From a virus (Duplodnaviria > Heunggongvirae > Uroviricota > Caudoviricetes): a stretch of DNA of 64,000 nt. Position 1 is the first letter of the stretch, and each line of letters opens with the position of its first letter. The DNA is taken from IMG/VR virus record IMGVR_UViG_3300035682_000015. One strand, given 5' to 3'. The notes beneath the pieces were generated by a model that was not told the origin of the DNA, ran no database searches, and saw nothing but the letters and a program-made list of their open reading frames with translations. Positions 10,031 through 61,497 of the stretch are shown one piece after another. The position numbers were made by a program, and so were the translations under genes.

Positions 10031-10552
10031 ATGGAAATGGACTTTACAAAATACTCGGTAGAAGAATTAAGAGAACTTCAAAACAAGATTGGTTATTATT
10101 TACAAACTCGTAATGATGATTTTGTTTATATCTGTGAGATTAGGTCGTATGGTAAAAATTGGGTGAATAAATACACCAATGAACTTGCTGTGAATGATTT
10201 GTGTGCTGATTACGATGGTTATGATGGTATCGTGGATGTATATACAACCAATCCGGATGCAGATATTAATAACTACGGTGAGGTTAATTACATCAAATCG
10301 GATGAACAATACCGTAAGTGGAAAGATAGTGAGAAATTAATATCTTCAATAAAAAGTGCTGAGGAGAGGTTGGCAAAATGGAAAGATAGAGATAACATTC
10401 CATTCCATTCAAGACCAACCTTTGCTCCGATGTGGACAGAACAAGATATTCTTGGGTGGAGAAATGAATTAGAAACCATTGGTGAGTATGAAAAACCTAC
10501 ATCAATTAAAAAAAGTGAAGAGTATGAAGAATCTGACTATGAAGGAGATTAA
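10031..10552 (+). CDS. hypothetical acidic protein
   Basis: 173 aa. Confidence 0.5.
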   Translation: MEMDFTKYSVEELRELQNKIGYYLQTRNDDFVYICEIRSYGKNWVNKYTNELAVNDLCADYDGYDGIVDVYTTNPDADINNYGEVNYIKSDEQYRKWKDSEKLISSIKSAEERLAKWKDRDNIPFHSRPTFAPMWTEQDILGWRNELETIGEYEKPTSIKKSEEYEESDYEGD

Positions 10553-10886
10553 CAAGAAATATGTTAATCGTATTATTGAGTCATTAGAGAATGACAAAGA
10601 ACTTTGGACAAGAGAAGTTATGTGCGGGATGGATGGATGTTTTGTCGATTATTATAGTCCAAAATATCCAACAAAAAATGGGGAAACTTTATCATTTTCT
10701 GATAGGGACTACGTTAGTGCTTATATTGATGGTAAATTTGCGTGGGAAATTCCATTTTGGATGTATCACAATCCATTTAGTGATTCGTCAAGACAATTAA
10801 GAAGAGCAATGGATACGATGAGAGTATATCTTAATGATAAAGATGACCAAGAACATAAAAATAAATTAACAGATTCAATTGAATAA
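10539..10886 (+). CDS. hypothetical protein
   Basis: ATG MKEINKK in frame with ORF 10479; 14-nt overlap. Confidence 0.45.
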   Translation: MKEINKKYVNRIIESLENDKELWTREVMCGMDGCFVDYYSPKYPTKNGETLSFSDRDYVSAYIDGKFAWEIPFWMYHNPFSDSSRQLRRAMDTMRVYLNDKDDQEHKNKLTDSIE

Positions 10887-10887
10887 T

Positions 10888-11634
10888 ATGAAAAAAATTA
10901 AACTTATAAAGTTGTACCCGGGGAGTCCTAATAATTTAGGTATTACATTAACACCTAAAGTGGATATAGATAATAATGATGCCAATAACTTCTATTGGGA
11001 AGGGAGTTGGTTTAATCCAAATCATTATCCTGAATTTTGGGAAGAAGTTGTTGAATTGAATTACGAAATAGTTGCTATGAAAACTCTTATGGGTACTGTT
11101 TTAGAATATGAAGATGGTGTTTGTGTTAAGAGGTCAGATACTAATTGTCCAAGTACAACAAATATATTACAGGTCACTCTCCGTGGAAATAAAAGTACTA
11201 TTTACTCAGTTAAACGTCTATCAGATGGTGAGGTATTCACAATAACCAATAAGGTTCAATTTATGGATACAAAAAGTGTTAACGGGTTTATCACTAAGTT
11301 TGAAATTGTTAATGATAGAATACTTGTTAGTTATGGTAATCAAACATCTAATTTAGATTCACTTGTTTTAGTAAAATTAGTAACATTCAAAACTGAAGAT
11401 GGTGTTGATGTGTTTGAGGGGGGTAAAGTGTGGTATGTTAGAAAAGATTTGACATATAACAATTCTTTTATTGTTAGTAATAATTGTTTTGTTGCTGGTG
11501 AGAATTTATATTTCTCAAAAAAAGAATTGATGAAAAATTATATTAGATTAAATACTCGTTGTTTAAGTTTAAATGATGTTTTGCGTAATACTTTAAATGA
11601 GTTAGATAGAATATCGTATAAAAGAGTGAAATAA
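10888..11634 (+). CDS. hypothetical protein
   Basis: ATG MKKIKLIK; ORF-track start 10879 is TTG. Confidence 0.55.
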   Translation: MKKIKLIKLYPGSPNNLGITLTPKVDIDNNDANNFYWEGSWFNPNHYPEFWEEVVELNYEIVAMKTLMGTVLEYEDGVCVKRSDTNCPSTTNILQVTLRGNKSTIYSVKRLSDGEVFTITNKVQFMDTKSVNGFITKFEIVNDRILVSYGNQTSNLDSLVLVKLVTFKTEDGVDVFEGGKVWYVRKDLTYNNSFIVSNNCFVAGENLYFSKKELMKNYIRLNTRCLSLNDVLRNTLNELDRISYKRVK

Positions 11635-11635
11635 T

Positions 11636-11836
11636 ATGTGGGTGGAAACTAAAATAGTGATGGATGGTGGTTACCAAGAGGCAATCATCTCACAAAATGA
11701 GACACAAAACGCGATTGTCTTAAAAATCGTTGAGGTGGAAGAGCCGGGTTCGGCAAGATTGTATATGTCTTACGATGAGGCGTTACGATTAGCAAATGAG
11801 TTAATAGATTTTGTAAGTAAAAATAGAAATAAATAA
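11636..11836 (+). CDS. hypothetical small protein
   Basis: 66 aa. Confidence 0.45.
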   Translation: MWVETKIVMDGGYQEAIISQNETQNAIVLKIVEVEEPGSARLYMSYDEALRLANELIDFVSKNRNK

Positions 11837-12156
11837 TGAAAGAAGAAATTAAAAGAATTGGGAGATTACCCAATAGTGTGAAGTTTTGGAATGGGTTGGT
11901 GTTAGTTGGTTTAATCGTTACCGGAGTATTAAGTTTAGATATTCTTTCGGTTGTGTTGGCAATAATATCGATTGCTGCTTTAGCGATGTTTATTGATGGT
12001 ATGGGTAGAGAAACTGATGATTATTTGGATAATCATATATGGATATATTTTGCACCATTAACTTGGGGTTTATATATCCTCGCTTTGATTGTTATTGGTT
12101 GTTATAAACTTTATGAGGGAACAATAGTTAAGTTTAATAATTGGTTAAATAAATAA
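11836..12156 (+). CDS. membrane protein
   Basis: TAATG coupling; three TM helices. Confidence 0.5.
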   Translation: MKEEIKRIGRLPNSVKFWNGLVLVGLIVTGVLSLDILSVVLAIISIAALAMFIDGMGRETDDYLDNHIWIYFAPLTWGLYILALIVIGCYKLYEGTIVKFNNWLNK

Positions 12157-12159
12157 GGT

Positions 12160-12495
12160 ATGGAAAAGAAATTAGGAAAAATTGAAGAAGTTCGTTTTGG
12201 TCTTGGTGGATATCAAGGTGCGATGTTAGGACTTCACGTTACATTAGGTAACGGAAGTTGGGGTGTTGGTGATTCAAAATGTAATTGGGACGCTGAACAA
12301 ATAATTTGGACCGAAAATACCCAATGGACTGAAGAAGATAGAGACGGATGGTATTCTGGGATTATGAGATATGTTTCAAAGTTACTATCAGAAGCCAAAG
12401 TGGATTCTGTTGATAAATTAAAAGGAAAACCTGTTGAGGTTACTTTTGATGGGAATCAGTTGAAGAGTTGGAGAATACTAACTGAAGTACTATAA
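12160..12495 (+). CDS. hypothetical protein
   Basis: 111 aa, followed by terminator. Confidence 0.5.
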   Translation: MEKKLGKIEEVRFGLGGYQGAMLGLHVTLGNGSWGVGDSKCNWDAEQIIWTENTQWTEEDRDGWYSGIMRYVSKLLSEAKVDSVDKLKGKPVEVTFDGNQLKSWRILTEVL

Positions 12496-20877: not shown

Positions 20878-20960
20878 ATCAAATAAATATCTAACAAAGA
20901 TAAAACATTTTATTGATTATATGGGGGAAATTATATATTATTATAATAAAATTAAATACT

Positions 20961-21590
20961 ATGGAATTAATAGAATCGTTACAGTGGAGATATGCCACCA
21001 AGAAAATGAATGGGGATAAAATCCCACAAGATAAATTAGATAGAATCTTAGAGGCAACAAGATTGGCTCCGAGTTCATATGGGCTAACACCTTATCAGGT
21101 AATCGTGGTAGAGGACCAAGACTTAAAGGAACAATTGGTGGGAGCGTGTTATAACCAAACACAACTAAAAGATTCATCGGCTGTATTGGTATTCGCGGTG
21201 TGGGATACAATAGATGAAAATGAGGTGGAGTATTACATTAAGACTATGGCATTAGAAAGAAATATCCCGGTAGAAGTATTAAATGATTTCAAAGGAATGA
21301 TGTTAGGGACATTATCTAATATGACAGAGGAACAAAAAACTATATGGGCACAGAAACAAACGTATATAGGATTAGGATTCTCATTAGTGGCATCAGCAGT
21401 AGAAGGAATAGACTCTACTCCAATGGAGGGATTTGTACCATCACAGGTGGATGAGATATTAGGACTAAAAGAATTAGGGTTAAAGTCCACATTAGTTCTT
21501 ACGTTAGGATATAGAGATACAGAAGGAGATTCACTATCTACTATGAAGAAAATAAGAAGAGATGGTGAGAATTTCTTTATAAGAAAATAA
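20961..21590 (+). CDS. NAD(P)H nitroreductase family protein
   Basis: RYATKKM..DKIP..LDRILEATRLAPSS.GLTPYQVIVV nitroreductase N-terminal signature. Confidence 0.75.
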   Translation: MELIESLQWRYATKKMNGDKIPQDKLDRILEATRLAPSSYGLTPYQVIVVEDQDLKEQLVGACYNQTQLKDSSAVLVFAVWDTIDENEVEYYIKTMALERNIPVEVLNDFKGMMLGTLSNMTEEQKTIWAQKQTYIGLGFSLVASAVEGIDSTPMEGFVPSQVDEILGLKELGLKSTLVLTLGYRDTEGDSLSTMKKIRRDGENFFIRK

Positions 21591-26105: not shown

Positions 26106-26876
26106 ATGAACGTATTAACAAACACTTTATTGGGGAACGATGTAATCATTGACATAATTGAAGGTCAAATGATTCTACATATTCCACATTCAAAAACAGA
26201 AATACCATTTTATGATGGATTTAATATGAATTATATTGAAAATGAGACCAAATTATTGGTTGATTTTGCTACTGATAAAATTTTTGACATCCCTAATGTC
26301 GAATCTCTAACTTTTGAGTATAATAGAATATTTTGTGACGTTGAAAGATTGGACGATAATGATGAACCATTATTTAATCTTGGTAGAGGTTTTTTTTATA
26401 CCAAAACTGATGACGGAAAAGACCTTAGAGTGTTAGATGATATGGTGAAAAAAAAGATTAAAGAAGAATTTTATGATATTCACCATAATAAATTGAATCA
26501 AATGGTTGAATATAGGTTGAATGAGTATGGTTGTGCAGTAATTATTGATTGTCATTCGTTTAGTGATATCCCATTTATAACTGATTTAGATAAAAGTGAG
26601 GTTAGACCGGACATTTGTTTAGGTGTTGATGATTTTCACACACCAAAATGGTTAATTAATCAAATTAAATCATATTTTGAATATCATAATTTATCTGTTA
26701 AAATAAATTCCCCGTACTCAGGGACAATAATTCCATTAAAATATTATAATAAAAACAAAAATGTTATTGGAATTATGATTGAGGTGAATCGAAAACTTTA
26801 TATGGATGAATTTATTGTTGATGATAATAAGGTTGATGAATTAAATTCTATTATTAAAAAATCTTTATTCATATAA
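26106..26876 (+). CDS. N-formylglutamate amidohydrolase-like zinc amidohydrolase
   Basis: HIPHS...IP and IIDCHS motifs reminiscent of FGase family; weak. Confidence 0.35.
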   Translation: MNVLTNTLLGNDVIIDIIEGQMILHIPHSKTEIPFYDGFNMNYIENETKLLVDFATDKIFDIPNVESLTFEYNRIFCDVERLDDNDEPLFNLGRGFFYTKTDDGKDLRVLDDMVKKKIKEEFYDIHHNKLNQMVEYRLNEYGCAVIIDCHSFSDIPFITDLDKSEVRPDICLGVDDFHTPKWLINQIKSYFEYHNLSVKINSPYSGTIIPLKYYNKNKNVIGIMIEVNRKLYMDEFIVDDNKVDELNSIIKKSLFI

Positions 26877-44319: not shown

Positions 44320-45219
44320 ATGAATACATTTATTTATGGGTTAGTCAGTAAAGAATCACCTAATGAAATTAGATATATTGGGAAATCGGATAATCCTTCT
44401 TATAGATTGAAAAGACATATATATTTAACAAAATACTCGGTTAAAAAAAATAAAAATTTAACACATAAAGATTATTGGATAATTAAAAACAATTATGATA
44501 TTGATTTTATTATCCTTGAAGAGTGTGATAATTTATTATGGAGTGAAAAAGAAAAAGAATATATCTTAAAACACACAAATTTGACAAACACTTCGTCGGG
44601 TGGGTTAGGTGGTTGTGGAATAACTTATAAAATGACTTATGATGAAACTAAATCTTGGATTCAAAAAAATTTAAAAATTAAATCAAAATCAGATTGGTAT
44701 CGTCAAATTAAAACACTTAAATTGCCTGATTATATTTGTAAATATCCCGACCAATCCTACGAAAAAAGAGGTTGGATTAGTTGGATTGATTTTTTGGGGT
44801 CAAATAATAAATTTGATAATGATGTTACCTATATTTCATATGATGAGGCAAAATTTAAATTACGTAATTTTAAATTTAAATGTTCCGAAGATTATCGGAA
44901 ACATCATAGAAATGGGTTAATCCCGTTTGATGTTCCGTTAAAACCTTTCAGATATTATGGTAAAAGGGGGTGGGTTAGTTGGTCAAATTATTTGAGTAAT
45001 AATAAGGTTACCAATATTGATAAAAAATTTGTTTCTTTTGATGAATTTATTAAAATAGTTAAAAAACTTGACATTAAAAGTGGTTATCAGTATAAAAAAA
45101 TAGATAAAACGATTAGAGATAAATATTGTCTTCCCTCAGTCCCATCAACACAATACAAAAATGAGGGTTGGAATGGTTGGGGGTTTAAAGTAAAAAAGTC
45201 CGGAAAACCGGACTTTTAA
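44320..45219 (+). CDS. GIY-YIG-type homing endonuclease-like protein
   Basis: IYGLVSKESPNEIRYIGKSDNPSYRLKRH GIY-YIG N-terminus; repeated KRGW[IV]SW DNA-binding-like modules. Confidence 0.6.
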   Translation: MNTFIYGLVSKESPNEIRYIGKSDNPSYRLKRHIYLTKYSVKKNKNLTHKDYWIIKNNYDIDFIILEECDNLLWSEKEKEYILKHTNLTNTSSGGLGGCGITYKMTYDETKSWIQKNLKIKSKSDWYRQIKTLKLPDYICKYPDQSYEKRGWISWIDFLGSNNKFDNDVTYISYDEAKFKLRNFKFKCSEDYRKHHRNGLIPFDVPLKPFRYYGKRGWVSWSNYLSNNKVTNIDKKFVSFDEFIKIVKKLDIKSGYQYKKIDKTIRDKYCLPSVPSTQYKNEGWNGWGFKVKKSGKPDF

Positions 45220-45220
45220 T

Positions 45221-45958
45221 TTATTTATTGTAAATTTCTTTTGAATAGTAATCTTCAAAACCTTCCATCATTTGACTGATTGAGGGACTATTTTCTAAAC
45301 CAATAATGTTATCAATTAATCCAATTTCTTTTGATTCTTCAGAGTTAAACCATTTATCTCGTCTTGAAATTTCATAAATCTCATCAAAAGTTTTATCACA
45401 ATTTTGAGATAATATTTTGAATAACATATAGTTATATTTTTCGGCTTCCATATGACTTATACGAGTATCTTGGATATTCCCCGATGTCCCATAACTTACA
45501 AAATGAGTCATAACTTTAGAAAAAATTAATGAATTTCTTTTACCTTTAGCTCCCGAAGACAATAATATTGAACCCATAGATGCACACATTCCAAGATTAG
45601 TTGTTGAAACATCTGCTTTAACATAATTCATAACATCTCTTATACCAAGTCCCATCATCACTGACCCACCAGGACTATTTAAGTAAAGACTAATATCTTT
45701 TTTATCTGTGGTGTCTAAAAAAATTAATTGTGCTTGGATAATATCACCCATTCTATCATCTACAGGTCCTGATGCCCAAACAATTCTATCAAGAATTAAT
45801 CTTGAAAAAATATCCATCTGAGTTGCTCTCATTTCTCGTTCTTCCAAAATATACGGGGTTAATGAATTTTCCATATGTTTTTGGTAGTAATCTAAATTAA
45901 GTCCTGAAATACCTCTGTCGCTCATTGCGAACTTTTTAAAATCGTTTCCGTAATTCAT
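45221..45958 (-). CDS. clpP: ClpP-family serine protease
   Basis: Ser-His-Asp triad context: GMCASMG, KVMTHFVSYGTSGNIQD, RRDKWFNSEESKEIGLID. Confidence 0.8.
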   Translation of the reverse strand: MNYGNDFKKFAMSDRGISGLNLDYYQKHMENSLTPYILEEREMRATQMDIFSRLILDRIVWASGPVDDRMGDIIQAQLIFLDTTDKKDISLYLNSPGGSVMMGLGIRDVMNYVKADVSTTNLGMCASMGSILLSSGAKGKRNSLIFSKVMTHFVSYGTSGNIQDTRISHMEAEKYNYMLFKILSQNCDKTFDEIYEISRRDKWFNSEESKEIGLIDNIIGLENSPSISQMMEGFEDYYSKEIYNK

Positions 45959-47742: not shown

Positions 47743-48405
47743 ATGGATAACGCAATTTACGAATATATAAAAAATGGGATAACCATTAATGGTGACCCGG
47801 TTGGTGGATATCAAGTATTCACAATCCCAACCCAACATTTTAAAATTGATTCTTTACATCAATTAACTCCGGAAACTTTTGAAAGGGAAATTCAAAAACA
47901 AAAAGAACACGATGAATTAACTTCCGAGATATTCAAAGAAGTTCAAAAAGAAATTGACCAAGAGATTGTAAACCAATTACGTGGTGGTGAACCTAATCCT
48001 GATATCATTCCGATGAATACAAACGATAGATTGTATAAGAATTATTTGGTTTATGTTATTGAGGGTGTTAAAAACGGATTTGATAGGATAAAAGGTTATT
48101 TAGATGGATGTTTAGTTGAGTTTGATGGGTATTATGAACATTTCACAAACCCATCTTTTCAATACGGATTTAGACCCTTAACACAAGAAGAGTTCATTAA
48201 TAAGTTATTATTTGATGATGACTTCTACCAAAAGTGGGGTGAGAATTGTTGTAAGGAATTGACTTACGAGGAAAGATATAAAATATGGTTCAGTAAAAAC
48301 TATGAAACCGGATTTGAATATGACGACGAAAAAATGATTACTATTATTGACTTTGATAACTCATATTGGACACCAACACCAAAAAGAAAATTAAAATGGA
48401 ATTAA
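47743..48405 (+). CDS. hypothetical protein carrying ThyA-insert-like motif
   Basis: PLTQEEFINKLLFDDDFYQKWGEN. Confidence 0.5.
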   Translation: MDNAIYEYIKNGITINGDPVGGYQVFTIPTQHFKIDSLHQLTPETFEREIQKQKEHDELTSEIFKEVQKEIDQEIVNQLRGGEPNPDIIPMNTNDRLYKNYLVYVIEGVKNGFDRIKGYLDGCLVEFDGYYEHFTNPSFQYGFRPLTQEEFINKLLFDDDFYQKWGENCCKELTYEERYKIWFSKNYETGFEYDDEKMITIIDFDNSYWTPTPKRKLKWN

Positions 48406-48983
48406 GTGTGATGGAAAGGTATGTAGCATTCATCTGTAATGAACTACCAAAAACGAGAAGAGTATTATTAAATCCCCCACCTCCAATGGAGAACGGAGAG
48501 TATGGATATAAGAGAATGAGTAAAATCGGACCTCACGTTTATATGTCTGTGGAAATTGAGATTGTTGAAAAATACACTCGTTCTGCTAAGTTATGTGTCA
48601 AATTTGAGGATTATCAAATGAACGATATATTCTATATGTCCCGTCATAAGGGGCCGGATAAACTATTGGAGGAAATTGACAAGAAGATTGATAAGATTGT
48701 TAATAGAACTTTGATTGATGATGGAAGACAGGAGTGGGTGAGAGAACAATATAAAATCAAGAGTGATGATTTCAAAAGTAAATTTAAGTTATTACTACCG
48801 GAAATTGATTTGTTTAGTAATTTGTATAAGAGATACGAACTTAATTGGATGAAGGAGAATCCCCCATTTTCAGGTCCATATACTGATGTGTGTTTAACTA
48901 AACAAGAATTTATTGATAAGTTAAGAGACGACAAGGAGTTTAACAAAGTGTGGGGTGGTAACAGAGAAAATATTTTAGAATAA
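48396..48983 (+). CDS. hypothetical protein carrying ThyA-insert-like motif
   Basis: CLTKQEFIDKLRDDKEFNKVWGGN. Confidence 0.5.
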   Translation: MELSVMERYVAFICNELPKTRRVLLNPPPPMENGEYGYKRMSKIGPHVYMSVEIEIVEKYTRSAKLCVKFEDYQMNDIFYMSRHKGPDKLLEEIDKKIDKIVNRTLIDDGRQEWVREQYKIKSDDFKSKFKLLLPEIDLFSNLYKRYELNWMKENPPFSGPYTDVCLTKQEFIDKLRDDKEFNKVWGGNRENILE

Positions 48984-49174
48984 TGTATATTATAGTTTGG
49001 AGAAATAGTCACCGGGAACCTTTTTTAGATACGGATTCTCGTAGTTTTTTGGAGTCGTATTATAGTTACGAGGAGGCTAAGGCTGCTGCCGAAGAAATTG
49101 TTAAAAACGAAAATGAGGGGGAACAAAGTCCCTGGTATTTTGATTATAAAATTTATGAAGAATCAAATGGATAA
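48983..49174 (+). CDS. hypothetical small protein
   Basis: TAATG coupling. Confidence 0.4.
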   Translation: MYIIVWRNSHREPFLDTDSRSFLESYYSYEEAKAAAEEIVKNENEGEQSPWYFDYKIYEESNG

Positions 49175-49412
49175 AGAAAAATTTATTGAAAAAGTAATTG
49201 AAAATGTTAAACACCTAACGGGAAAAATTATTGAATTTATACCTATGGAATTTAACGTTGGTATGTTTATAATAATTGATGGTGTTTCTAAGGGTTTAAC
49301 TAATTCAGTTTTACGTGATTATAAAAACACTATCGATTATTATGAAATAGATATTATCACGGATTTTAGTAATATGATTATTAAAGAATTTAATTTGAAA
49401 TCAAATGACTAA
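49167..49412 (+). CDS. hypothetical small protein
   Basis: ATG MDKEKFIEK overlapping upstream stop. Confidence 0.4.
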   Translation: MDKEKFIEKVIENVKHLTGKIIEFIPMEFNVGMFIIIDGVSKGLTNSVLRDYKNTIDYYEIDIITDFSNMIIKEFNLKSND

Positions 49413-50010
49413 ATTAGAGAATCTTTGTATTAAGTGGTTGAATGAAAATTTTAACCCTATGGAACCATTCATTATGGAAGAATACCCTGATTATATTTTT
49501 CATATGAAAGATGGGAAATGTATTTTACAATACAATAAAAAAAATGGGTATGTTTATGTGAGTTATAGAGAAATTTGGAAATTTTTTGAATCCTATTTTA
49601 GTATGTCTAACCAACAAATTAAGGACATTACAAAGATATGGGTGGAGGAATACTACAAAGTGGGGGTAACAACAACTAAATTACATGAGAGAATTGGAAG
49701 AAGAATGGTGGAGGAACACTACAAAATGGGGGTGACAACAACTTTTGGTTTGGATAGATTGAATTACAGTAAGGTGGAGGAACACTACAAAATGGGGGTA
49801 ACAACAACTGGATTAATCCATCAACACCACCTAAGTCAGGTGGAGGAACACTACAAAATGAGGGTAACAACAACACTATCTGATTTTGGTAACGCAACTC
49901 TACCGGTGGAGAAACAATACAAAGAAATTCAAACAACCAACAACCAATTACAATTTTACTCTGAAAAGGATGTTGAAGAATTATATGAACAAAAAACAAA
50001 TGGAAAATAA
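49405..50010 (+). CDS. family-C paralog with C-terminal 22-aa tandem repeats (VEEHYKMGVTTT)
   Basis: N-terminal domain paralogous to 13073 and 20554 genes. Confidence 0.55.
   Translation: MTKLENLCIKWLNENFNPMEPFIMEEYPDYIFHMKDGKCILQYNKKNGYVYVSYREIWKFFESYFSMSNQQIKDITKIWVEEYYKVGVTTTKLHERIGRRMVEEHYKMGVTTTFGLDRLNYSKVEEHYKMGVTTTGLIHQHHLSQVEEHYKMRVTTTLSDFGNATLPVEKQYKEIQTTNNQLQFYSEKDVEELYEQKTNGK
49642..49941 (+). repeat. 66-bp tandem repeat, 4 good copies + 1 degenerate
   Basis: Unit starts at 49642, 49708, 49774, 49840, 49906. Confidence 0.85.
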
Positions 50011-50401
50011 ATACGAAGACAGAACGATTAAACTAAATGAATTATCTGAAGGTGATGAGTTTATTGGTAAATGGTCTCCCACAAAAATTAGATACTTAAA
50101 AAATTTAGGTGGGGATAGACATTTATTAAAGGATGTTGAAACCGGACGAGAATGGGAAGTTCCTCACGGAAGATTTCCTTCGTTTAAGAAAATAACAACA
50201 TTCATAAATGAACCAATTGAAACTATTTTGGAAAAACCTGACCTTAATAGTTGGAAATATTATTCAAAATTACTATCTTTATCGGAAAAGATATATTTGG
50301 AGATGTTTGGTGAGCCAAAATCTCACACAGAATGGGCGGATAGTATCAATAAAATAGGGAGAATAAACAGATTAATAATAAAACACGCAAATGGCAACTA
50401 A
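49985..50401 (+). CDS. hypothetical protein
   Basis: ATG MNKKQMENKYED; alternative ATG at 50000. Confidence 0.45.
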   Translation: MNKKQMENKYEDRTIKLNELSEGDEFIGKWSPTKIRYLKNLGGDRHLLKDVETGREWEVPHGRFPSFKKITTFINEPIETILEKPDLNSWKYYSKLLSLSEKIYLEMFGEPKSHTEWADSINKIGRINRLIIKHANGN

Positions 50402-50708
50402 AAAAGAAAAAAAAGTTAGAGAAAAGATTGATTTGGACCACGATACCCTTATGGATTTATGGGATAATGTTAATTATAAAGGTGATAGTCACGAATTAAA
50501 CGGTGAGAAATATACTCACGTAGATAAAATAAACACATCTGATAAGTCAGATGGTGATTCTTGGGATTATATTGTACAAAGAAAATCTGATGGAAAACAT
50601 TTCAAATTTAATGTTTGGGATGCAGGTTCACATAATGGTTATGTCTTTGAAGATAAGTTCTTAGAAGAAGTATTTCCTAAAACAGTTACAACAACCAAAT
50701 ATAAATAA
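50391..50708 (+). CDS. hypothetical protein
   Basis: 105 aa. Confidence 0.5.
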   Translation: MATKKEKKVREKIDLDHDTLMDLWDNVNYKGDSHELNGEKYTHVDKINTSDKSDGDSWDYIVQRKSDGKHFKFNVWDAGSHNGYVFEDKFLEEVFPKTVTTTKYK

Positions 50709-50709
50709 A

Positions 50710-51213
50710 ATGGCGAAATACGATAATAAAAACAGAAAACCCCATTTAGGGTTACTAAATTTTGAAGGGGATACATTCAGAGCATACAAACTTGGTGTCT
50801 CTGATTACGTAATTGTGGATGACCAACACGAGATAATTGAGATGACCAACACAAAAGGTATCATCTACATTATGAATGGTGGTAAATCTTTAACAACAAG
50901 TTATGGTAGAACATATACCATTCCAAATGAACATAAAGATGCGAGACCAACTGACGAAAAGTTAAGAATTTTCTTGGGATTGGATTCTTTAGAAGATGAG
51001 GAAGATGATTTGGAACTTTGGGAATCAGTTCAGTACAGAATGGATGAAGAAGGATTTGACTATTGTTTTGAAAGTTATAGTCATTGGGATGAAATCAAAG
51101 ATGAAGAGTTCCACCGATTAAGATTGGGATTCTTACAATCTATGGAAGACCTTAGAAATTATATTAATAAAAAAGTTGAAGAAGGTAGAGAAAAAGAATT
51201 GGATGGAGAATAA
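50710..51213 (+). CDS. hypothetical acidic protein
   Basis: 167 aa. Confidence 0.5.
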   Translation: MAKYDNKNRKPHLGLLNFEGDTFRAYKLGVSDYVIVDDQHEIIEMTNTKGIIYIMNGGKSLTTSYGRTYTIPNEHKDARPTDEKLRIFLGLDSLEDEEDDLELWESVQYRMDEEGFDYCFESYSHWDEIKDEEFHRLRLGFLQSMEDLRNYINKKVEEGREKELDGE

Positions 51214-51496
51214 CAATCATAAATACAATACAAGAATCCCCCCAGAAATGAAGGGAAAATATAAACAACTTGATGAGGTTTATAATGATTGGAATGATTT
51301 TTTTGACAAATATGCTGATGGTAAAAGACAAAATAATGGAATAATCTCATATTTTTTGGGGTCATCAAATGAAGTTACGTTATTTTGGTTTGAAGGTGAA
51401 GAATTTCCATTTGCTTACGTTTTTAGTAGTGGGATTTATGAAATTAATGGTGAATATAAACGAGGATATAGATTTTATTTAAAAGATGGAGAGTAA
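51203..51496 (+). CDS. hypothetical protein
   Basis: ATG MENNNHKYN. Confidence 0.45.
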   Translation: MENNNHKYNTRIPPEMKGKYKQLDEVYNDWNDFFDKYADGKRQNNGIISYFLGSSNEVTLFWFEGEEFPFAYVFSSGIYEINGEYKRGYRFYLKDGE

Positions 51497-51788
51497 AGAA
51501 TATAATTTTAGATGTACCTATAAGAAAGGTGAACATCGTTGTAACGGAAGTCACCTTTTTGAATTGAACGATTCTATTTTACCGTTACTATCATATTATA
51601 TGATTTTCAGAGGTAACTTAACTATTGATAAGGAAATGGTGTTATCTGAAATGAAAGAGTTTGAAACTTATCTTGATGAATTATACCTTGATAATGAAAG
51701 TAAAGGTGGTGAAATATTTATACATTTCACCACAATTGATATACAAGCCGAATTAATACATTCCTTTGTGGATAAAAAATATGAATAA
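51486..51788 (+). CDS. hypothetical protein
   Basis: 100 aa. Confidence 0.45.
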   Translation: MESKEYNFRCTYKKGEHRCNGSHLFELNDSILPLLSYYMIFRGNLTIDKEMVLSEMKEFETYLDELYLDNESKGGEIFIHFTTIDIQAELIHSFVDKKYE

Positions 51789-51927
51789 ACCGGAAATAAT
51801 TGACGATGAATTATGGGACCATTACAGTGGGTTACCAAATCCAATGTGGTATCAACGTAATAAAGAATTAGAGGATGAAGAAGAAGATACAAGTGATAGT
51901 GATGATACTGAAGTTACTACTGAATAA
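51781..51927 (+). CDS. small acidic protein
   Basis: 48 aa. Confidence 0.3.
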   Translation: MNKPEIIDDELWDHYSGLPNPMWYQRNKELEDEEEDTSDSDDTEVTTE

Positions 51928-51951
51928 AATAAAACGAAAAAGAAAAAGTAT

Positions 51952-52125
51952 ATGGGACTTATAAATAATCTTTATGCTGTGTATGAAAAATCACCGGCAC
52001 ACGGGAGCAAAGAACATAATGTAATTTTGGCTCCTTTCAAAACTAAAGAAGAGGCAGAACAAAACAGAATTAAATACGGTTATAACACCGATAATTATTA
52101 CGTAGATATTTTGAAATATGAATAA
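51952..52125 (+). CDS. hypothetical small protein
   Basis: 57 aa, stop overlaps thyA start. Confidence 0.3.
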   Translation: MGLINNLYAVYEKSPAHGSKEHNVILAPFKTKEEAEQNRIKYGYNTDNYYVDILKYE

Positions 52126-53266
52126 ACTAGATAAACAATACACAGACCTTCTCCAAGACATTCTTGACAACGGAGTAACAAAACAAGACAGAACAGGTAC
52201 AGGGACAATCTCAGTATTCGGAAGACAAATACGTCACGATATGAAAGATGGTTTTCCTCTTTTGACTACAAAGAAAATGCCATTCAAAACAATCGTAACA
52301 GAACTTCTTTGGTTCTTACGAGGAGATACCAACATTAAGTTTTTGGTTGATAATAATTGTCATATTTGGGATGGTGATTGCTACAAATCTTATAAACAAA
52401 GTATTTTAGAATCCTTTGATAGATTATCAAATGACCCCGTAATAGATGCGATGCCACCTAGAATATTAACACAAGAAGAATTCACCAACAAAATCAAAAC
52501 AGATGATGAGTTTGCTAAGAAGTGGGGTGAGTTAGGTCCTGTGTACGGTAAGCAATGGAGAAAGTGGGGTTATGATAGTGATAAATGGAGAGAAGACTAT
52601 AACAAATTACAATTTGGTTCTAAAGAAGAAATTGAACACCTTAGTAAAAAAGGTATAGACCAAATCACAAACCTAATCAACGACCTTAAAACAAATCCAG
52701 ACTCAAGACGATTGATGGTTAATGCTTGGAATGTTGGAGAATTAGACCAAATGGTTCTTCCACCTTGTCATTATGGATTTCAAGTTTATACAAGAGAGTT
52801 GAGTTTAGATGATAGAAAAGATATTTGGAATAAAAACAATTTCAGTCAAGATATGTCGTGGCATAATATGGAAGAACACGATATTATGGATTTACTAAAC
52901 GATAATGACATCCCAAAACGAGCAATCTCTTTAATGTTTAATATGAGGTCAAATGATGTTCCATTAGGGCTTCCATTTAATATATCATCTTATGGTTTAT
53001 TATTAGAAATTATTGGGAAAATGGTTAATATGATACCTGACGAATTAATTACTAATTTAGGTGATGCTCATATCTATAAAAACCAAGTAGATGGTGTTAA
53101 AGAACAATTAACAAGGAAACCATTTGAATTACCTAAATTAGTTATGTCTAACCAAATTAATTTTAATGAAAGTGTTGCTGAATTTTTGAATAGTTGTCTA
53201 ATAACTGATTTTATTGTTGAAAATTATCAATCACATCCAACCATAAAAATGCCATTATCTAACTAG
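52118..53266 (+). CDS. thyA: thymidylate synthase family (ThyA, long-insert type); possibly pyrimidine hydroxymethylase
   Basis: DRTGTGT, ELLWFLRGDTN, LGPVYGKQWR, LPPCHYGFQ (catalytic Cys), DVPLGLPFNISSYG; L. casei-like small-domain insert plus extra ~35-aa insert. Confidence 0.8.
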   Translation: MNKLDKQYTDLLQDILDNGVTKQDRTGTGTISVFGRQIRHDMKDGFPLLTTKKMPFKTIVTELLWFLRGDTNIKFLVDNNCHIWDGDCYKSYKQSILESFDRLSNDPVIDAMPPRILTQEEFTNKIKTDDEFAKKWGELGPVYGKQWRKWGYDSDKWREDYNKLQFGSKEEIEHLSKKGIDQITNLINDLKTNPDSRRLMVNAWNVGELDQMVLPPCHYGFQVYTRELSLDDRKDIWNKNNFSQDMSWHNMEEHDIMDLLNDNDIPKRAISLMFNMRSNDVPLGLPFNISSYGLLLEIIGKMVNMIPDELITNLGDAHIYKNQVDGVKEQLTRKPFELPKLVMSNQINFNESVAEFLNSCLITDFIVENYQSHPTIKMPLSN

Positions 53267-53322: not shown

Positions 53323-54153
53323 ATGAAAAAGTTTTTAATCTATGAAATAAAAAACAATATAAATGGTAAATCTTATATTGGACAATATAGTGGTGAGTCA
53401 TTTGAAAAGTATTTTGGAAGTGGAAAATTAATTAAGTTATCAATAAAAAAATATGGGTTAGAAAATTTTTCTAAAACAATTTTAGAAGAGTGCTTTAATA
53501 AAAATGAATTGAATGAAAAAGAAATTTTTTGGATAGATAAATTAAAAACTATTGAAAATGGTTATAATTTGACTGAAGGTGGAACAGGGGGTGATTTGTC
53601 TGAATTTATAAAGTATGGTGAGAATTGGGTTGAAAAACAAAGAATCTCCACAAAAAAATATTGGGACAATCTAACTGAAGATGAAAGAAAAAAAAGAAGT
53701 GAAATTGTTTCAGGTGAAAAAAATGGGATGTATGGTAAAGATGGATTTTGGAAGGGTAAAAAAATACCAATAGATATTATTAAAAAGTCATTGGAGAATA
53801 GAAGAAGTTACGATAAAGAACAAAACCCAAATTGGAAAGGTGGTGTTACATATGTTTATTGTGAATGTGGTAAAAGAATAGGTTATGGTCACATTCATTG
53901 TAACAAATGTAGACCTAGAACTAAAAACAATAATCCATTTTATGGGAAACAACATTCCGAAGAGACTAAAAAAAAATTAAGTGAAAAAAGGAAAGGGGTA
54001 AAACCAACAAATATGAAACCGGTAATGATTGATAATATTATTTATGAAAGTTTGGCGGAAGCGTCAAATATACTTAAAATTCCAATGGTTACAATTCGTT
54101 GGAGAGTGAAAAGTAATAATGAAAAATTTAATAATTACCAATATAAAGAATAA
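53323..54153 (+). CDS. GIY-YIG homing endonuclease
   Basis: IYEIKNNINGKSYIGQ ... NGYNLTEGGTGG; NUMOD-like repeats; Cys4 zinc finger CECGKRIGYGHIHCNKCR. Confidence 0.75.
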   Translation: MKKFLIYEIKNNINGKSYIGQYSGESFEKYFGSGKLIKLSIKKYGLENFSKTILEECFNKNELNEKEIFWIDKLKTIENGYNLTEGGTGGDLSEFIKYGENWVEKQRISTKKYWDNLTEDERKKRSEIVSGEKNGMYGKDGFWKGKKIPIDIIKKSLENRRSYDKEQNPNWKGGVTYVYCECGKRIGYGHIHCNKCRPRTKNNNPFYGKQHSEETKKKLSEKRKGVKPTNMKPVMIDNIIYESLAEASNILKIPMVTIRWRVKSNNEKFNNYQYKE

Positions 54154-60666: not shown

Positions 60667-61497
60667 ATGAAAAACACAAAAACTTACCACGAGTTGGTAC
60701 AAAAATTAAGAACGTTCTTCGTAAATAAGAACTTTATTGAGGTTCCGACCCAATCAAGATTATCTATTTTAGCTGCTTGTGAAAACCCACACTCAGTAAA
60801 AACCTTTGAATATGGGGGTGAAATTTGGCCATTACCACAAACCGGGCAAATGTGGTTAGAATTGGAATTATTGAAGAATCCTGAATGGGATGGAGTGTTC
60901 TGTATTTCAACATCATATAGAGAAGAGAAAAATCCAATCCCGGGTCGTCACGAATTAATCTTTCCCATGTTTGAATTTGAATCAAAGGGCGGTATGCTTC
61001 ATTTACTCGTATTAGAACGTGAATTATTACAATATTTAGGTTTCTCAGAACCAGTTCCCGTAGATTACGAACAAGTTTGTAAAGAATATGGAGATGTTTC
61101 TATTTTAGAAGATGAACACGAATCGAGAATGTGGAAAGAAAAAAGTGAGGTTATATCATTACAAAACTTTCCAATTAGAACAAACCCATTTTGGAATATG
61201 AAACACGATTCAGATAACATCTTCAATAAGGTTGACGTAATCCTTTTTGGTCAAGAAACTATTGGTTCTGCTGAAAGAAGTTGTGATGTTGAAAAGATGC
61301 GAGAGATGTTCTATACAATTGAAGGTGGTGGTTACTCTCAGAAATTATTTGAATTATTTGGAAAAGATAGAGTTGAGAAAGAATTAAAAGAATTCTTATC
61401 TTTGGACTTTTTCCCAAGATTCGGAGCCGGAATTGGTTTAACAAGATTGGCAAGAGCTTATGAATTAAATCAAAAAGTTTTGGAAGTTATAGAATAA
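60667..61497 (+). CDS. class-II aminoacyl-tRNA synthetase catalytic-core paralog (EpmA/GenX- or AsnA-like), no anticodon-binding domain
   Basis: Motif 1 FFVNKNFIEVPTQ; motif 2 YREEKNPIPGRHELIFPMFEFE; motif 3 RFGAGIGLTRLARAY. Confidence 0.6.
   Translation: MKNTKTYHELVQKLRTFFVNKNFIEVPTQSRLSILAACENPHSVKTFEYGGEIWPLPQTGQMWLELELLKNPEWDGVFCISTSYREEKNPIPGRHELIFPMFEFESKGGMLHLLVLERELLQYLGFSEPVPVDYEQVCKEYGDVSILEDEHESRMWKEKSEVISLQNFPIRTNPFWNMKHDSDNIFNKVDVILFGQETIGSAERSCDVEKMREMFYTIEGGGYSQKLFELFGKDRVEKELKEFLSLDFFPRFGAGIGLTRLARAYELNQKVLEVIE

Follow-up and report, generated by a model that had tools for sequence, protein, structure and literature searches.

The stretch of viral DNA analysed here (IMG/VR virus record IMGVR_UViG_3300035682_000015; Caudoviricetes), called the window below, is 64,000 nucleotides (nt) long with about 30% G+C, and its plus strand is dense with small open reading frames (ORFs). 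Three genes on this strand are the subject of the analysis: thyA, encoding a long-form thymidylate synthase (TS) of 382 amino acids (aa; 52118..53266), and two smaller ORFs upstream of it, ORF1 (220 aa; 47743..48405) and ORF2 (195 aa; 48396..48983). Profile comparisons and selection estimates establish ORF1 and ORF2 as conserved, predicted non-catalytic small proteins carrying transplanted insert modules of ThyA, and the block-like variable cassettes inside these modules as members of a pool common to ThyA and several small-ORF families. Related contigs are labelled L### and homologous proteins P####; the clade comprises at least 596 thyA-like stretches in IMG/VR, and the DNA-based selection estimates draw on a few dozen contigs.

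Judged by its sequence, the product of the window thyA is a thymidylate synthase with a complete catalytic apparatus. It matches PF00303 with E=6e-94 and 314.5 bits (cut-off 24.3), TIGR03284 with 306 bits (cut-off 108) and NF002496 with 326.8 bits (cut-off 325), and its best solved relatives in the PDB are the TSs of Enterococcus faecalis, S. aureus and L. casei, the last of which is among its best full-length matches. The motifs R(DRTG), Y(VYGKQWR), DSRR, PPCH, RS.D, PFN and H/Y(GDAHIY) are all kept, and the C-terminus is full-length, as read from the translation and its alignment to the E. faecalis and S. aureus enzymes. PPCH holds the catalytic Cys and His, DSRR provides the Arg pair donated by the partner subunit, and the Asn of PFN specifies dUMP; this Cys and the Asn in PFNISSY had already been pointed out in an earlier note on this DNA, and both are read in the translation. 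The same note had described a small-domain insert and a second insert before the folate-binding segment, which lie at aa 84-138 and 226-268, but it overlooked a third insert at aa 151-179. In the small domain (site 1; 52367..52531), the left anchor WDGDCYKSY is followed by the cassette KQSILESFDRLSNDPVIDAMPPRI and the right anchor LTQEEFTNKIKTDDEFAKKWGE. The overlooked insert (site 3; 52568..52654) is GYDSDKWREDYNKLQFGSKEEIEHLSKKG, lies after YGKQWRxW and belongs to a position that is hypervariable among ThyAs and not shared with the satellite proteins described below. The second insert (site 2; 52793..52921) consists of RELSLDDR, a cassette and IPKR, sits in the beta-hairpin after the catalytic PPCH and directly precedes AISLMFNMRSND..PFNISSY.

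The earlier note had also suspected a dUMP hydroxymethylase, since such enzymes look like ThyA, and one could extend this suspicion to a dUMP (or dCMP) hydroxymethylase with ORF1 and ORF2 as accessory subunits of a thymine-hypermodification pathway. A cultured relative of the window, the Flavobacterium phage vB_FspM_immuto, does modify its DNA, but its route is a different one, its 7-deazaguanine genes lying near thyA. However, the window enzyme exceeds the curated cut-offs of the TS equivalog models, its closest solved relatives are canonical TSs, and its motifs and C-terminus are complete. The dCMP hydroxymethylase of the T4 gp42 type has Asp where ThyA has the pyrimidine-specifying Asn; the window enzyme retains this Asn in PFNISSY and is therefore not a dCMP hydroxymethylase. 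Genes for hypermodification or for processing of 5-hydroxymethyldeoxyuridine were absent among the 20 larger window ORFs scanned, and a second, insert-less type of ThyA is also accompanied by module-bearing ORFs. The hydroxymethylase explanation is thus very unlikely.

The motif common to ThyA, ORF1 and ORF2 is about 22 aa long and corresponds to the conserved right-hand anchor of the ThyA small-domain insert. By BLASTP, ORF1 144-167 and ThyA 115-138 have 16 of 24 residues identical (E=5e-7), ORF2 and ThyA 117-137 have 11 of 21 (E=1e-4), and ORF1 and ORF2 have 16 of 35 (E=8e-5). When a 21-aa hidden Markov model (HMM) of the motif was run over all window ORFs of at least 40 aa, only ThyA, ORF1 and ORF2 matched (E-values of 1e-13, 4e-8 and 4e-13 for the three), the next hit having E=4.9. 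At the level of families, hhalign joins ORF1 to ThyA with 96.2% probability (E=2.6e-9) and ORF2 to ThyA with 97.9% (E=6e-13); its stretches reaching ORF1 69-97 and ORF2 85-130 may be alignment overhang and are not relied on. The left anchor (L/C)YKxY is likewise common to the three proteins. In addition, ORF1 170-217 resembles the second ThyA insert, for which pairwise BLASTP gives E=0.012, and the whole-library profile search retrieved ThyAs through this segment of ORF1 with E=1e-13 to 1e-9. The three motif copies in the window are 53-67% identical as DNA, so the similarity is one of proteins and not of a recent DNA repeat; a repeat at the DNA level, or recent gene conversion within the window, has no support in this figure.

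These results bear out the earlier note in its placement of the motif in ThyA and in the ORFs at 47743-48405 and 48396-48983, on which BLASTP, the motif HMM and hhalign agree, and the sensitive profile comparison that it had named as the decisive check came out in favour of insert homology. Its statement that the two ORFs are otherwise not ThyA-like was too narrow, since ORF1 also has a copy of the second insert and the left anchor, and its idea of fragment-derived paralogs is in essence correct for the C-terminal parts of ORF1 and ORF2, which are homologous to the inserts. Its other idea, an interaction module common to a dNTP-synthesis complex, is plausible as a guess. The note saw the motif but missed the variable cassette behind the anchor, the sharing of cassettes across families and the richness of the locus in homing endonucleases. 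A short motif in which K, E, D and F abound might also arise as a chance or compositional likeness of amphipathic charged helices in an AT-rich genome. This possibility can be taken as already refuted by the BLASTP, HMM and profile E-values, and by the 80-95% identity with which entire cassettes of 20-55 aa, as well as the anchors beside them, are shared across families.

ORF1 seems to be a non-catalytic fusion in which an N-terminal domain is followed by both insert modules of ThyA, copied without the core. The N-terminal domain (aa 1-59; 47743..47919) has the pattern GYxVFTIPTQHF..L..LT..FE.EI, and the module-bearing part consists of a left anchor DRLYKNY (48025..48045), equivalent to GDCYKSY of ThyA, a first cassette LVYVIEGVKNGFDRIKGYLDGCLVEFDGYYEHFTNPSFQYGFRP (48046..48177) whose type also occurs in ORF2-family proteins of other phages, the right anchor LTQEEFINKLLFDDDFYQKWGE (48178..48243), which is the motif described above, and a segment homologous to the second ThyA insert, ELTYEERY with the cassette KIWFSKNYETG...YWTPTPKRK (48256..48390). 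Neither PF00303 nor any NCBIfam model matches ORF1 or ORF2, and DSRR, PPCH and PFNI are absent from both. ORF1 has 371 homologues of 60-98% identity, which, like those of ORF2, show a conserved N-terminal part, then an unalignable stretch and then the conserved motif. Among orthologues of related contigs, the median ratio of nonsynonymous to synonymous substitution rates (dN/dS) is about 0.18 in the N-terminal domain and 0.2 in the anchor region, with dS about 0.8. The ORF1-family profile found 218 clusters among 1.84 billion representative proteins; they are N-domain-only ORFs of about 70 aa, module-only ORFs, and ThyAs recognised through the ORF1 tail cassette (..ERYxIWFxNNYETGME..PTPKR). 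This type of tail cassette occurs at site 2, the beta-hairpin, in ThyAs P0440, P0430, P0286 and P0309, and at a fourth ThyA site, after EQIGR, in P0364, P0376 and P0397. The N-terminal domain is found in more distant relatives (L029, L033, L036, L044, L046 and L047) as an ORF of its own, abutting thyA immediately upstream. From these homologues, ORF1 is a predicted fusion of two thyA-linked families. The idea that its N-terminal domain, or the ORFs of about 70 aa that start with MNxLDKQY as ThyA does, could be a degenerate ThyA N-terminus was rejected at an hhalign probability of 0.3%. The modules A and B of ORF1, defined below, are joined by a pair of Cys residues in WGENCCEEL (aa 166-173; 48238-48261); among 120 homologues C170 never varies and the conservation of C169 is 90% or more, and neither has a counterpart in ThyA or in the satellites.

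ORF2 starts with the ATG at 48396, overlapping the ORF1 stop, and has its own conserved N-terminal domain, followed at its C-terminus by a copy of the small-domain module (48816..48959), namely the left anchor SNLYKRY, the cassette ELNWMKENPPFSGPYTDVC and the right anchor LTKQEFIDKLRDDKEFNKVWGG. It has 77 homologues, with a median dN/dS of 0.10-0.16 among orthologues of related contigs. Natural short forms of ORF2, 135-144 aa in length, lack exactly this module. The window cassette NWMKENPPFSGPYTDVC of ORF2 is also found in ThyAs P0201 and P0205 (NWLKENPPFAGPYTDPC) and in ORF1 of L020. The purifying selection on ORF1 and ORF2 suggests that both are expressed. Their overlap at 48385-48410 reads ..AAATGGAATTAAGT.., and the two are fused to a single protein in P0168, P0173 and P0323. 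A tblastn search of cultured phage genomes with ORF1 and ORF2 yielded one partial match, to an uncultured-phage record, and no isolate therefore carries them.

In more distant relatives, the two modules also occur together in small satellite proteins of 110-196 aa (about 130), which usually lie 0.1-2 kb upstream of thyA and number up to four tandem copies (L033). In module A, the small-domain segment, the anchors (G)D-x-Y-x-x-Y on the left and L-T-x-E-E-F-I-x-K-I-K-T-D-D-E-F-x-K-W-G on the right enclose a variable cassette. In module B, which in ThyA occupies the hairpin after the catalytic Cys, the variable cassette lies between E-L-S-x-x-E-R and I-P-x-K/R, and a beta-strand comes next. The satellites have the architecture M.KEQQELLDEAYENY, cassette, EEFINKxKTDxEFSEKWG, LxIEERELSxEER, cassette, IPTKLITITYNDKTIESYE. 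In one hhalign alignment with ThyA (98.8%, E=1.4e-16), they cover ThyA 86-139 and then 222-278, and the catalytic core at 140-221 is skipped. Every element of the satellites recurs in ORF1 aa 95-216 (Y-x-x-Y, cassette, EEFIxK..D.EF..KWG, E-L-(S/T)-x-x-E-R, cassette, P-T-(K/P)-(K/R)), and satellites, such as P0337 with E=1.6e-16, match the profile of the ORF1 family over its positions ~92-193. Satellites and ThyA have the second cassette in common too, ERNKWFQINLNGNNPLMKSDWKDYELDQQNIP of an L033 satellite being similar to ERNQWFQIHRNGNNPTMKSDWKDFELDQQNIP of the L036 ThyA.

The cassettes themselves vary in a discrete manner. ThyA homologues are 354-513 aa long and 55-100% identical, and in them conserved WDGDAYKNY and LTQEEFINKIKTDDEFAKKWGELG flank a site 1 segment of 18-129 aa, which falls into discrete, mutually unalignable types. 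With types defined by single-linkage clustering at 55% identity, a sample of about 130 non-identical long ThyAs, whose backbones are at the median 81% identical, contains 74 types at site 1, 76 at site 2, 83 at site 3 (134 sequences) and 19 at site 4, where most sequences are empty. Different types stand on backbones up to 97-99% identical, and the same type stands on backbones merely 71-76% identical. The probability of having the same type at site 2, given the same type at site 1, is 0.10 against a baseline of 0.017, and the sites thus assort almost independently; some types even occupy site 2 in one ThyA and site 4 in another. The module as a whole is optional, as seen in the ORF2 short forms and in short-type ThyAs without it. 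The target of a diversity-generating retroelement departs from a template repeat by substitutions at adenines and has a reverse transcriptase gene nearby. This was considered and rejected because the cassettes are of unequal length (at site 1, from 18 to 129 aa) and their types are unalignable; no reverse transcriptase was found among the window ORFs scanned, in a search that was not exhaustive.

With the anchors trimmed, 24 of 127 cassettes at site 1, 20 of 129 at site 2 and 6 of 26 at site 4 recur in proteins other than ThyA, and the single recurrence at site 3 (1/130) is an artefact. The shared blocks are close in sequence: ThyA P0244 and the ORF2-family protein P0167 are 95% identical over 37 aa, and window ORF1 and the ORF2-family protein P0137 are 84% identical over 55 aa. 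In cassette 1, ORF1 is 82-84% identical at the aa level with P0124, with P0137 and with the ORF2s from L003 and L009-L011, the nucleotide differences being mostly synonymous, and the L011 ThyA and several ORF1s have NNP(A/D)YKAESVADLMGSQAGQLVKC in common. In codon alignments, the similarity between carriers opens at the left anchor and ends at ..KWG, and the differences within it are again mostly synonymous; ORF2 of L003 has a chimeric anchor. For 15 cross-family cassette pairs, the proportion of synonymous differences (pS) is 0.59 and that of nonsynonymous differences (pN) is 0.11, a ratio of 0.18, which shows that the cassettes are old and under purifying selection as peptides in both contexts. 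Within one genome, the same cassette was found in two carriers in none of 31 pairs; since 0.28 would be expected by chance (P(0)=0.76), this comparison is underpowered. The homology of the modules and the sharing of cassettes between carriers can be stated with high confidence.

The pattern of anchor, cassette and anchor might be regarded as a mobile unit at the DNA level, which would enter surface loops and small ORFs without breaking the reading frame, irrespective of any benefit to the carrier. The presence of one module B cassette type at two ThyA sites (after FQVYTR and after EQIGR) and also in satellites would fit such a unit, as would the presence and absence of the module in ORF2 with clean boundaries. 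However, the anchor DNA is conserved no more than coding requires (dS about 0.8 in ORF1; 53-67% identity within the window), and neither terminal repeats nor a transposition gene has been identified. Because all the carriers are thyA or thyA-linked, paralogous recombination fits better than transposition, and a selfish element seems quite improbable.

A plausible source of such recombination lies next to thyA. A free-standing homing endonuclease gene of the I-TevI-like GIY-YIG type, with GIY-YIG, I-TevI zinc finger, NUMOD3 and I-TevI DNA-binding domains, is located 57 nt 3′ of the window thyA (53323..54153, plus strand), and a gene of this kind lies 19-67 nt 3′ of thyA in 16 of 104 related loci, the window included, its distribution being patchy. 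The window thyA is uninterrupted, and no group I intron was matched by Rfam in the window or at the split in L029, where a 237-aa GIY-YIG/NUMOD1 gene situated exactly in cassette 1 divides thyA into ORFs of 108 and 340 aa (10203-12287); with no Rfam intron there, the L029 enzyme may be a genuinely split TS. In L020 (13539-16081), L021 (12837-15379) and L005 (11812-13661), an insert-less thyA and a homing endonuclease gene stand between remnants of a long thyA. The replacing enzyme belongs to a second type of 276-277 aa, whose best NCBIfam model is NF002495, and the remnants are a 134-aa module ORF upstream (L020 and L021) and a C-terminal fragment downstream, which has 101 aa in L020 and L021 and has decayed to 63 aa in L005. 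Other rearrangements are seen in metagenomic ThyA homologues: in P0409 the stretch from site 2 to site 4 is present twice in tandem, the junction running through the common cassette of sites 4 and 2, and in P0254 and P0210 the N-terminal ~100 aa are repeated in frame inside an insert. Repeated break and repair linked to the endonucleases is a plausible origin of both the partial copies and the recombination through the anchors.

Such remnants also invite the view that the tails of ORF1 and ORF2, and the satellites, are functionless thyA leftovers of endonuclease-driven allele replacement, surviving only for lack of harm or thanks to a need for the unrelated N-terminal domains, with cassettes constrained by folding only. 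Clear relics do exist: in L005 a 101-aa C-terminal fragment has shrunk to 63 aa, and 5′ pieces are found next to thyA genes that were replaced; moreover, the module is dispensable in the short forms of ORF2, and the endonuclease genes are patchy. Against this view, both the anchors (dN/dS about 0.2) and the cassettes outside ThyA (pN/pS 0.18 at pS 0.59) are under purifying selection, one precise satellite architecture is kept across distant lineages with up to four intact tandem copies, and the module region of ORF1 has invariant residues that ThyA lacks (CC in WGENCCEEL). We therefore consider it unlikely that these proteins are mere relics, slightly more so than the conflict-based explanation discussed below.

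The explanation that we prefer starts from the satellites. These core-less mini-ThyAs of about 130 aa, made of modules A and B, are probably products of a partial duplication of thyA with loss of its interior, at a locus that homing endonucleases would have cut and rebuilt time and again. In the lineage of the window, a satellite would have been fused to the separate thyA-linked protein of about 70 aa to give ORF1, and module A alone would have been appended to another small protein to give ORF2. Breaks made by the endonucleases would stimulate homologous recombination in the anchors, and this would carry the cassette blocks from one place to another. As for function, our guess is that the modules serve as optional peripheral domains, which fold by themselves and present a surface like that of ThyA. 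ORF1 and ORF2 would then most likely bind the partner of the ThyA peripheral domain, be it ThyA itself or a component of nucleotide synthesis or replication, and would perform no catalysis; this role of partner binding through a ThyA-like surface is proposed tentatively. Taken as a whole, in a judgement that blends the secure homology and cassette sharing with the tentative function, this explanation seems reasonably probable.

Several points weigh against it. First, the direction from thyA to satellite is one that we infer because the anchors match core ThyA residues existing in insert-less enzymes. Second, a causal role of the endonucleases is supported by association and not by proof. Third, transfer of cassettes between carriers is old (pS about 0.6), and together with the lack of within-genome sharing (0/31) this means that ongoing intragenomic gene conversion is not demonstrated. 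Fourth, ORF1, ORF2, the N-domain family and the satellites have no significant match in Pfam, PHROGs, NCBIfam, PADLOC or the PDB; the E. faecalis TS small domain reaches E=0.74 only. Fifth, AlphaFold2 models are poor, the mean predicted local distance difference test (pLDDT) score being 63 for ThyA (66-sequence alignment) and 54 for ORF1 (120 sequences), a quality that serves neither a fold search nor the placing of the inserts, so that the explanation makes no structural claim on the packing of modules A and B into one domain or on their position with respect to active site and dimer interface. Finally, a binding role alone leaves the large number of cassette types unexplained.

A rival explanation is an arms race, in which the cassettes would be a hypervariable recognition surface of ThyA under frequency-dependent selection, and the satellites, ORF1 and ORF2 would be decoys or allele-specific poisons directed at a host factor recognising ThyA or at the ThyA of a competing phage. 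The occurrence of more than 70 discrete types per site on a conserved backbone, with sites that assort independently, would fit such a conflict, as would the strong conservation of each type as a peptide, the optional nature of the module in every carrier, and the finding that co-resident carriers always differ in cassette (0/31). Yet zero sharing within genomes is just what chance predicts (0.28 expected, P(0)=0.76), PADLOC gives no match to a defence or anti-defence family, and a decoy would be expected to match the cassette of its own ThyA, which it does not. In addition, no host system directed at the ThyA of phages is known to us, which counts against the same explanation. An arms race of this kind is accordingly unlikely, though the least so among the rivals considered. 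Its fullest version would regard the three to four ThyA loops, which would resemble complementarity-determining regions, and the satellites as an intracellular recognition system filled from a pool of cassettes that is large, ancient and under selection, driven by conflict with a host factor or with rival phages and using homing endonucleases as its shuffling engine, and this we hold to be equally unlikely. Partner binding by ThyA-derived modules stays the preferred reading of ORF1 and ORF2.

The surroundings of these genes show further features. A second GIY-YIG endonuclease-like ORF of the window (44320-45219, plus strand) lies upstream of ORF1 and adjoins a ClpP-like protease gene (45221-45958, minus strand), which is kept about 2 kb upstream of ORF1 in L003 and L005. 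Between ORF2 and thyA, the 201-aa ORF at 49405-50010 (plus strand) contains four tandem peptide repeats of about 18 aa around (V)EEHYKMGVTTT, and its L007 homologue (11487-12164) has the same repeats. The window also carries auxiliary genes that are odd for a phage, encoding a class II aminoacyl-tRNA-synthetase-like protein of the D/K/N type (276 aa; 60667-61497), an N-formylglutamate amidohydrolase-like protein (26106-26876), a nitroreductase (20913-21590) and an SPFH/Band 7 protein (1996-2853). The nearest cultured relatives of the window are the ~160-kb Flavobacterium phages vB_FspM_immuto, with which DNA-level similarity is confined to thyA (70-72% identity); the immuto thyA is also of the long form (423 aa). 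Just 3′ of thyA, immuto (L001/L002, 8666-12978) has a 7-deazaguanine DNA-modification cluster (QueD, QueE, FolE, DpdA), of which no counterpart was found 3′ of the window thyA, where the scan covered the five larger ORFs between 54 and 64 kb. In the distant relatives L033 (2508-5446), L036 (824-1277), L044 (8986-10219) and L046 (9487-10210), many small ORFs in series end in ..IESYE with the next ATG overlapping the stop, a conserved junction that may reflect translational coupling or a recombination boundary.

Thymidylate synthase is among the most conserved and best-studied enzymes, and in this clade its peripheral inserts appear to act as independent, selected and exchangeable modules. The free modules offer a concrete route, via their binding partners, to the role of the TS small domain. 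The locus further suggests that at places ridden with homing endonucleases, pieces of an essential gene can be turned into new protein families. In aquatic phage metagenomes, several hypothetical small-ORF families near thyA would be explained by the modules. Should the diversity of cassettes reflect conflict, it would be an unusual arms race centred on an enzyme of nucleotide metabolism.

In the libraries and literature searched, no description of ThyA insert modules or cassettes outside the enzyme was found, and comparison with known systems is therefore one of partial likeness. The TS small domain is known as a variable, flexible part of the enzyme beside the cofactor site (PMC6479881). Site 1 of the window ThyA aligns to this domain in the long-form TSs of E. 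faecalis (..KFCDAILNDAEFAEKYGELG..) and S. aureus. No function of the small domain has, to our knowledge, been assigned. Unlike other long-form TSs, the clade of the window has dozens of discrete, exchangeable cassette types in the small domain and in two or three further loops, and its small-domain module also lives in separate small proteins. The presence of an I-TevI-like gene beside thyA recalls homing at the TS genes of phages, as with T4 td and I-TevI, B. mojavensis thyA and I-BmoI, and the free-standing Seg and Mob endonucleases and split genes of T4-like phages. The T4-like systems are also resembled in the patchy distribution of the endonuclease, the split thyA of L029 and the allele replacement with flanking remnants, and endonuclease-driven gene conversion occurs in T4-like phages. 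In contrast to the intron-encoded I-TevI, the window endonuclease is free-standing and no intron was found, and we know of no report that the TS homing systems yield conserved, translated, core-less insert copies or a shared pool of cassettes. By analogy only, the conserved flanks around variable blocks, present in a main gene and in partial copies nearby, are reminiscent of Neisseria pilE/pilS and Borrelia vlsE; however, the partial copies here are intact and apparently translated ORFs under purifying selection, and the exchange is ancient (pS about 0.6) and between genomes, not a programmed switching within one genome. Finally, ORF1, ORF2 and the satellites share with pseudoenzymes and domain-fragment paralogues their derivation from an enzyme, their conservation and the loss of all catalytic residues, but whereas the usual pseudoenzyme is a whole inactivated fold, only peripheral, lineage-specific inserts are kept here, joined across a precise deletion of the core.

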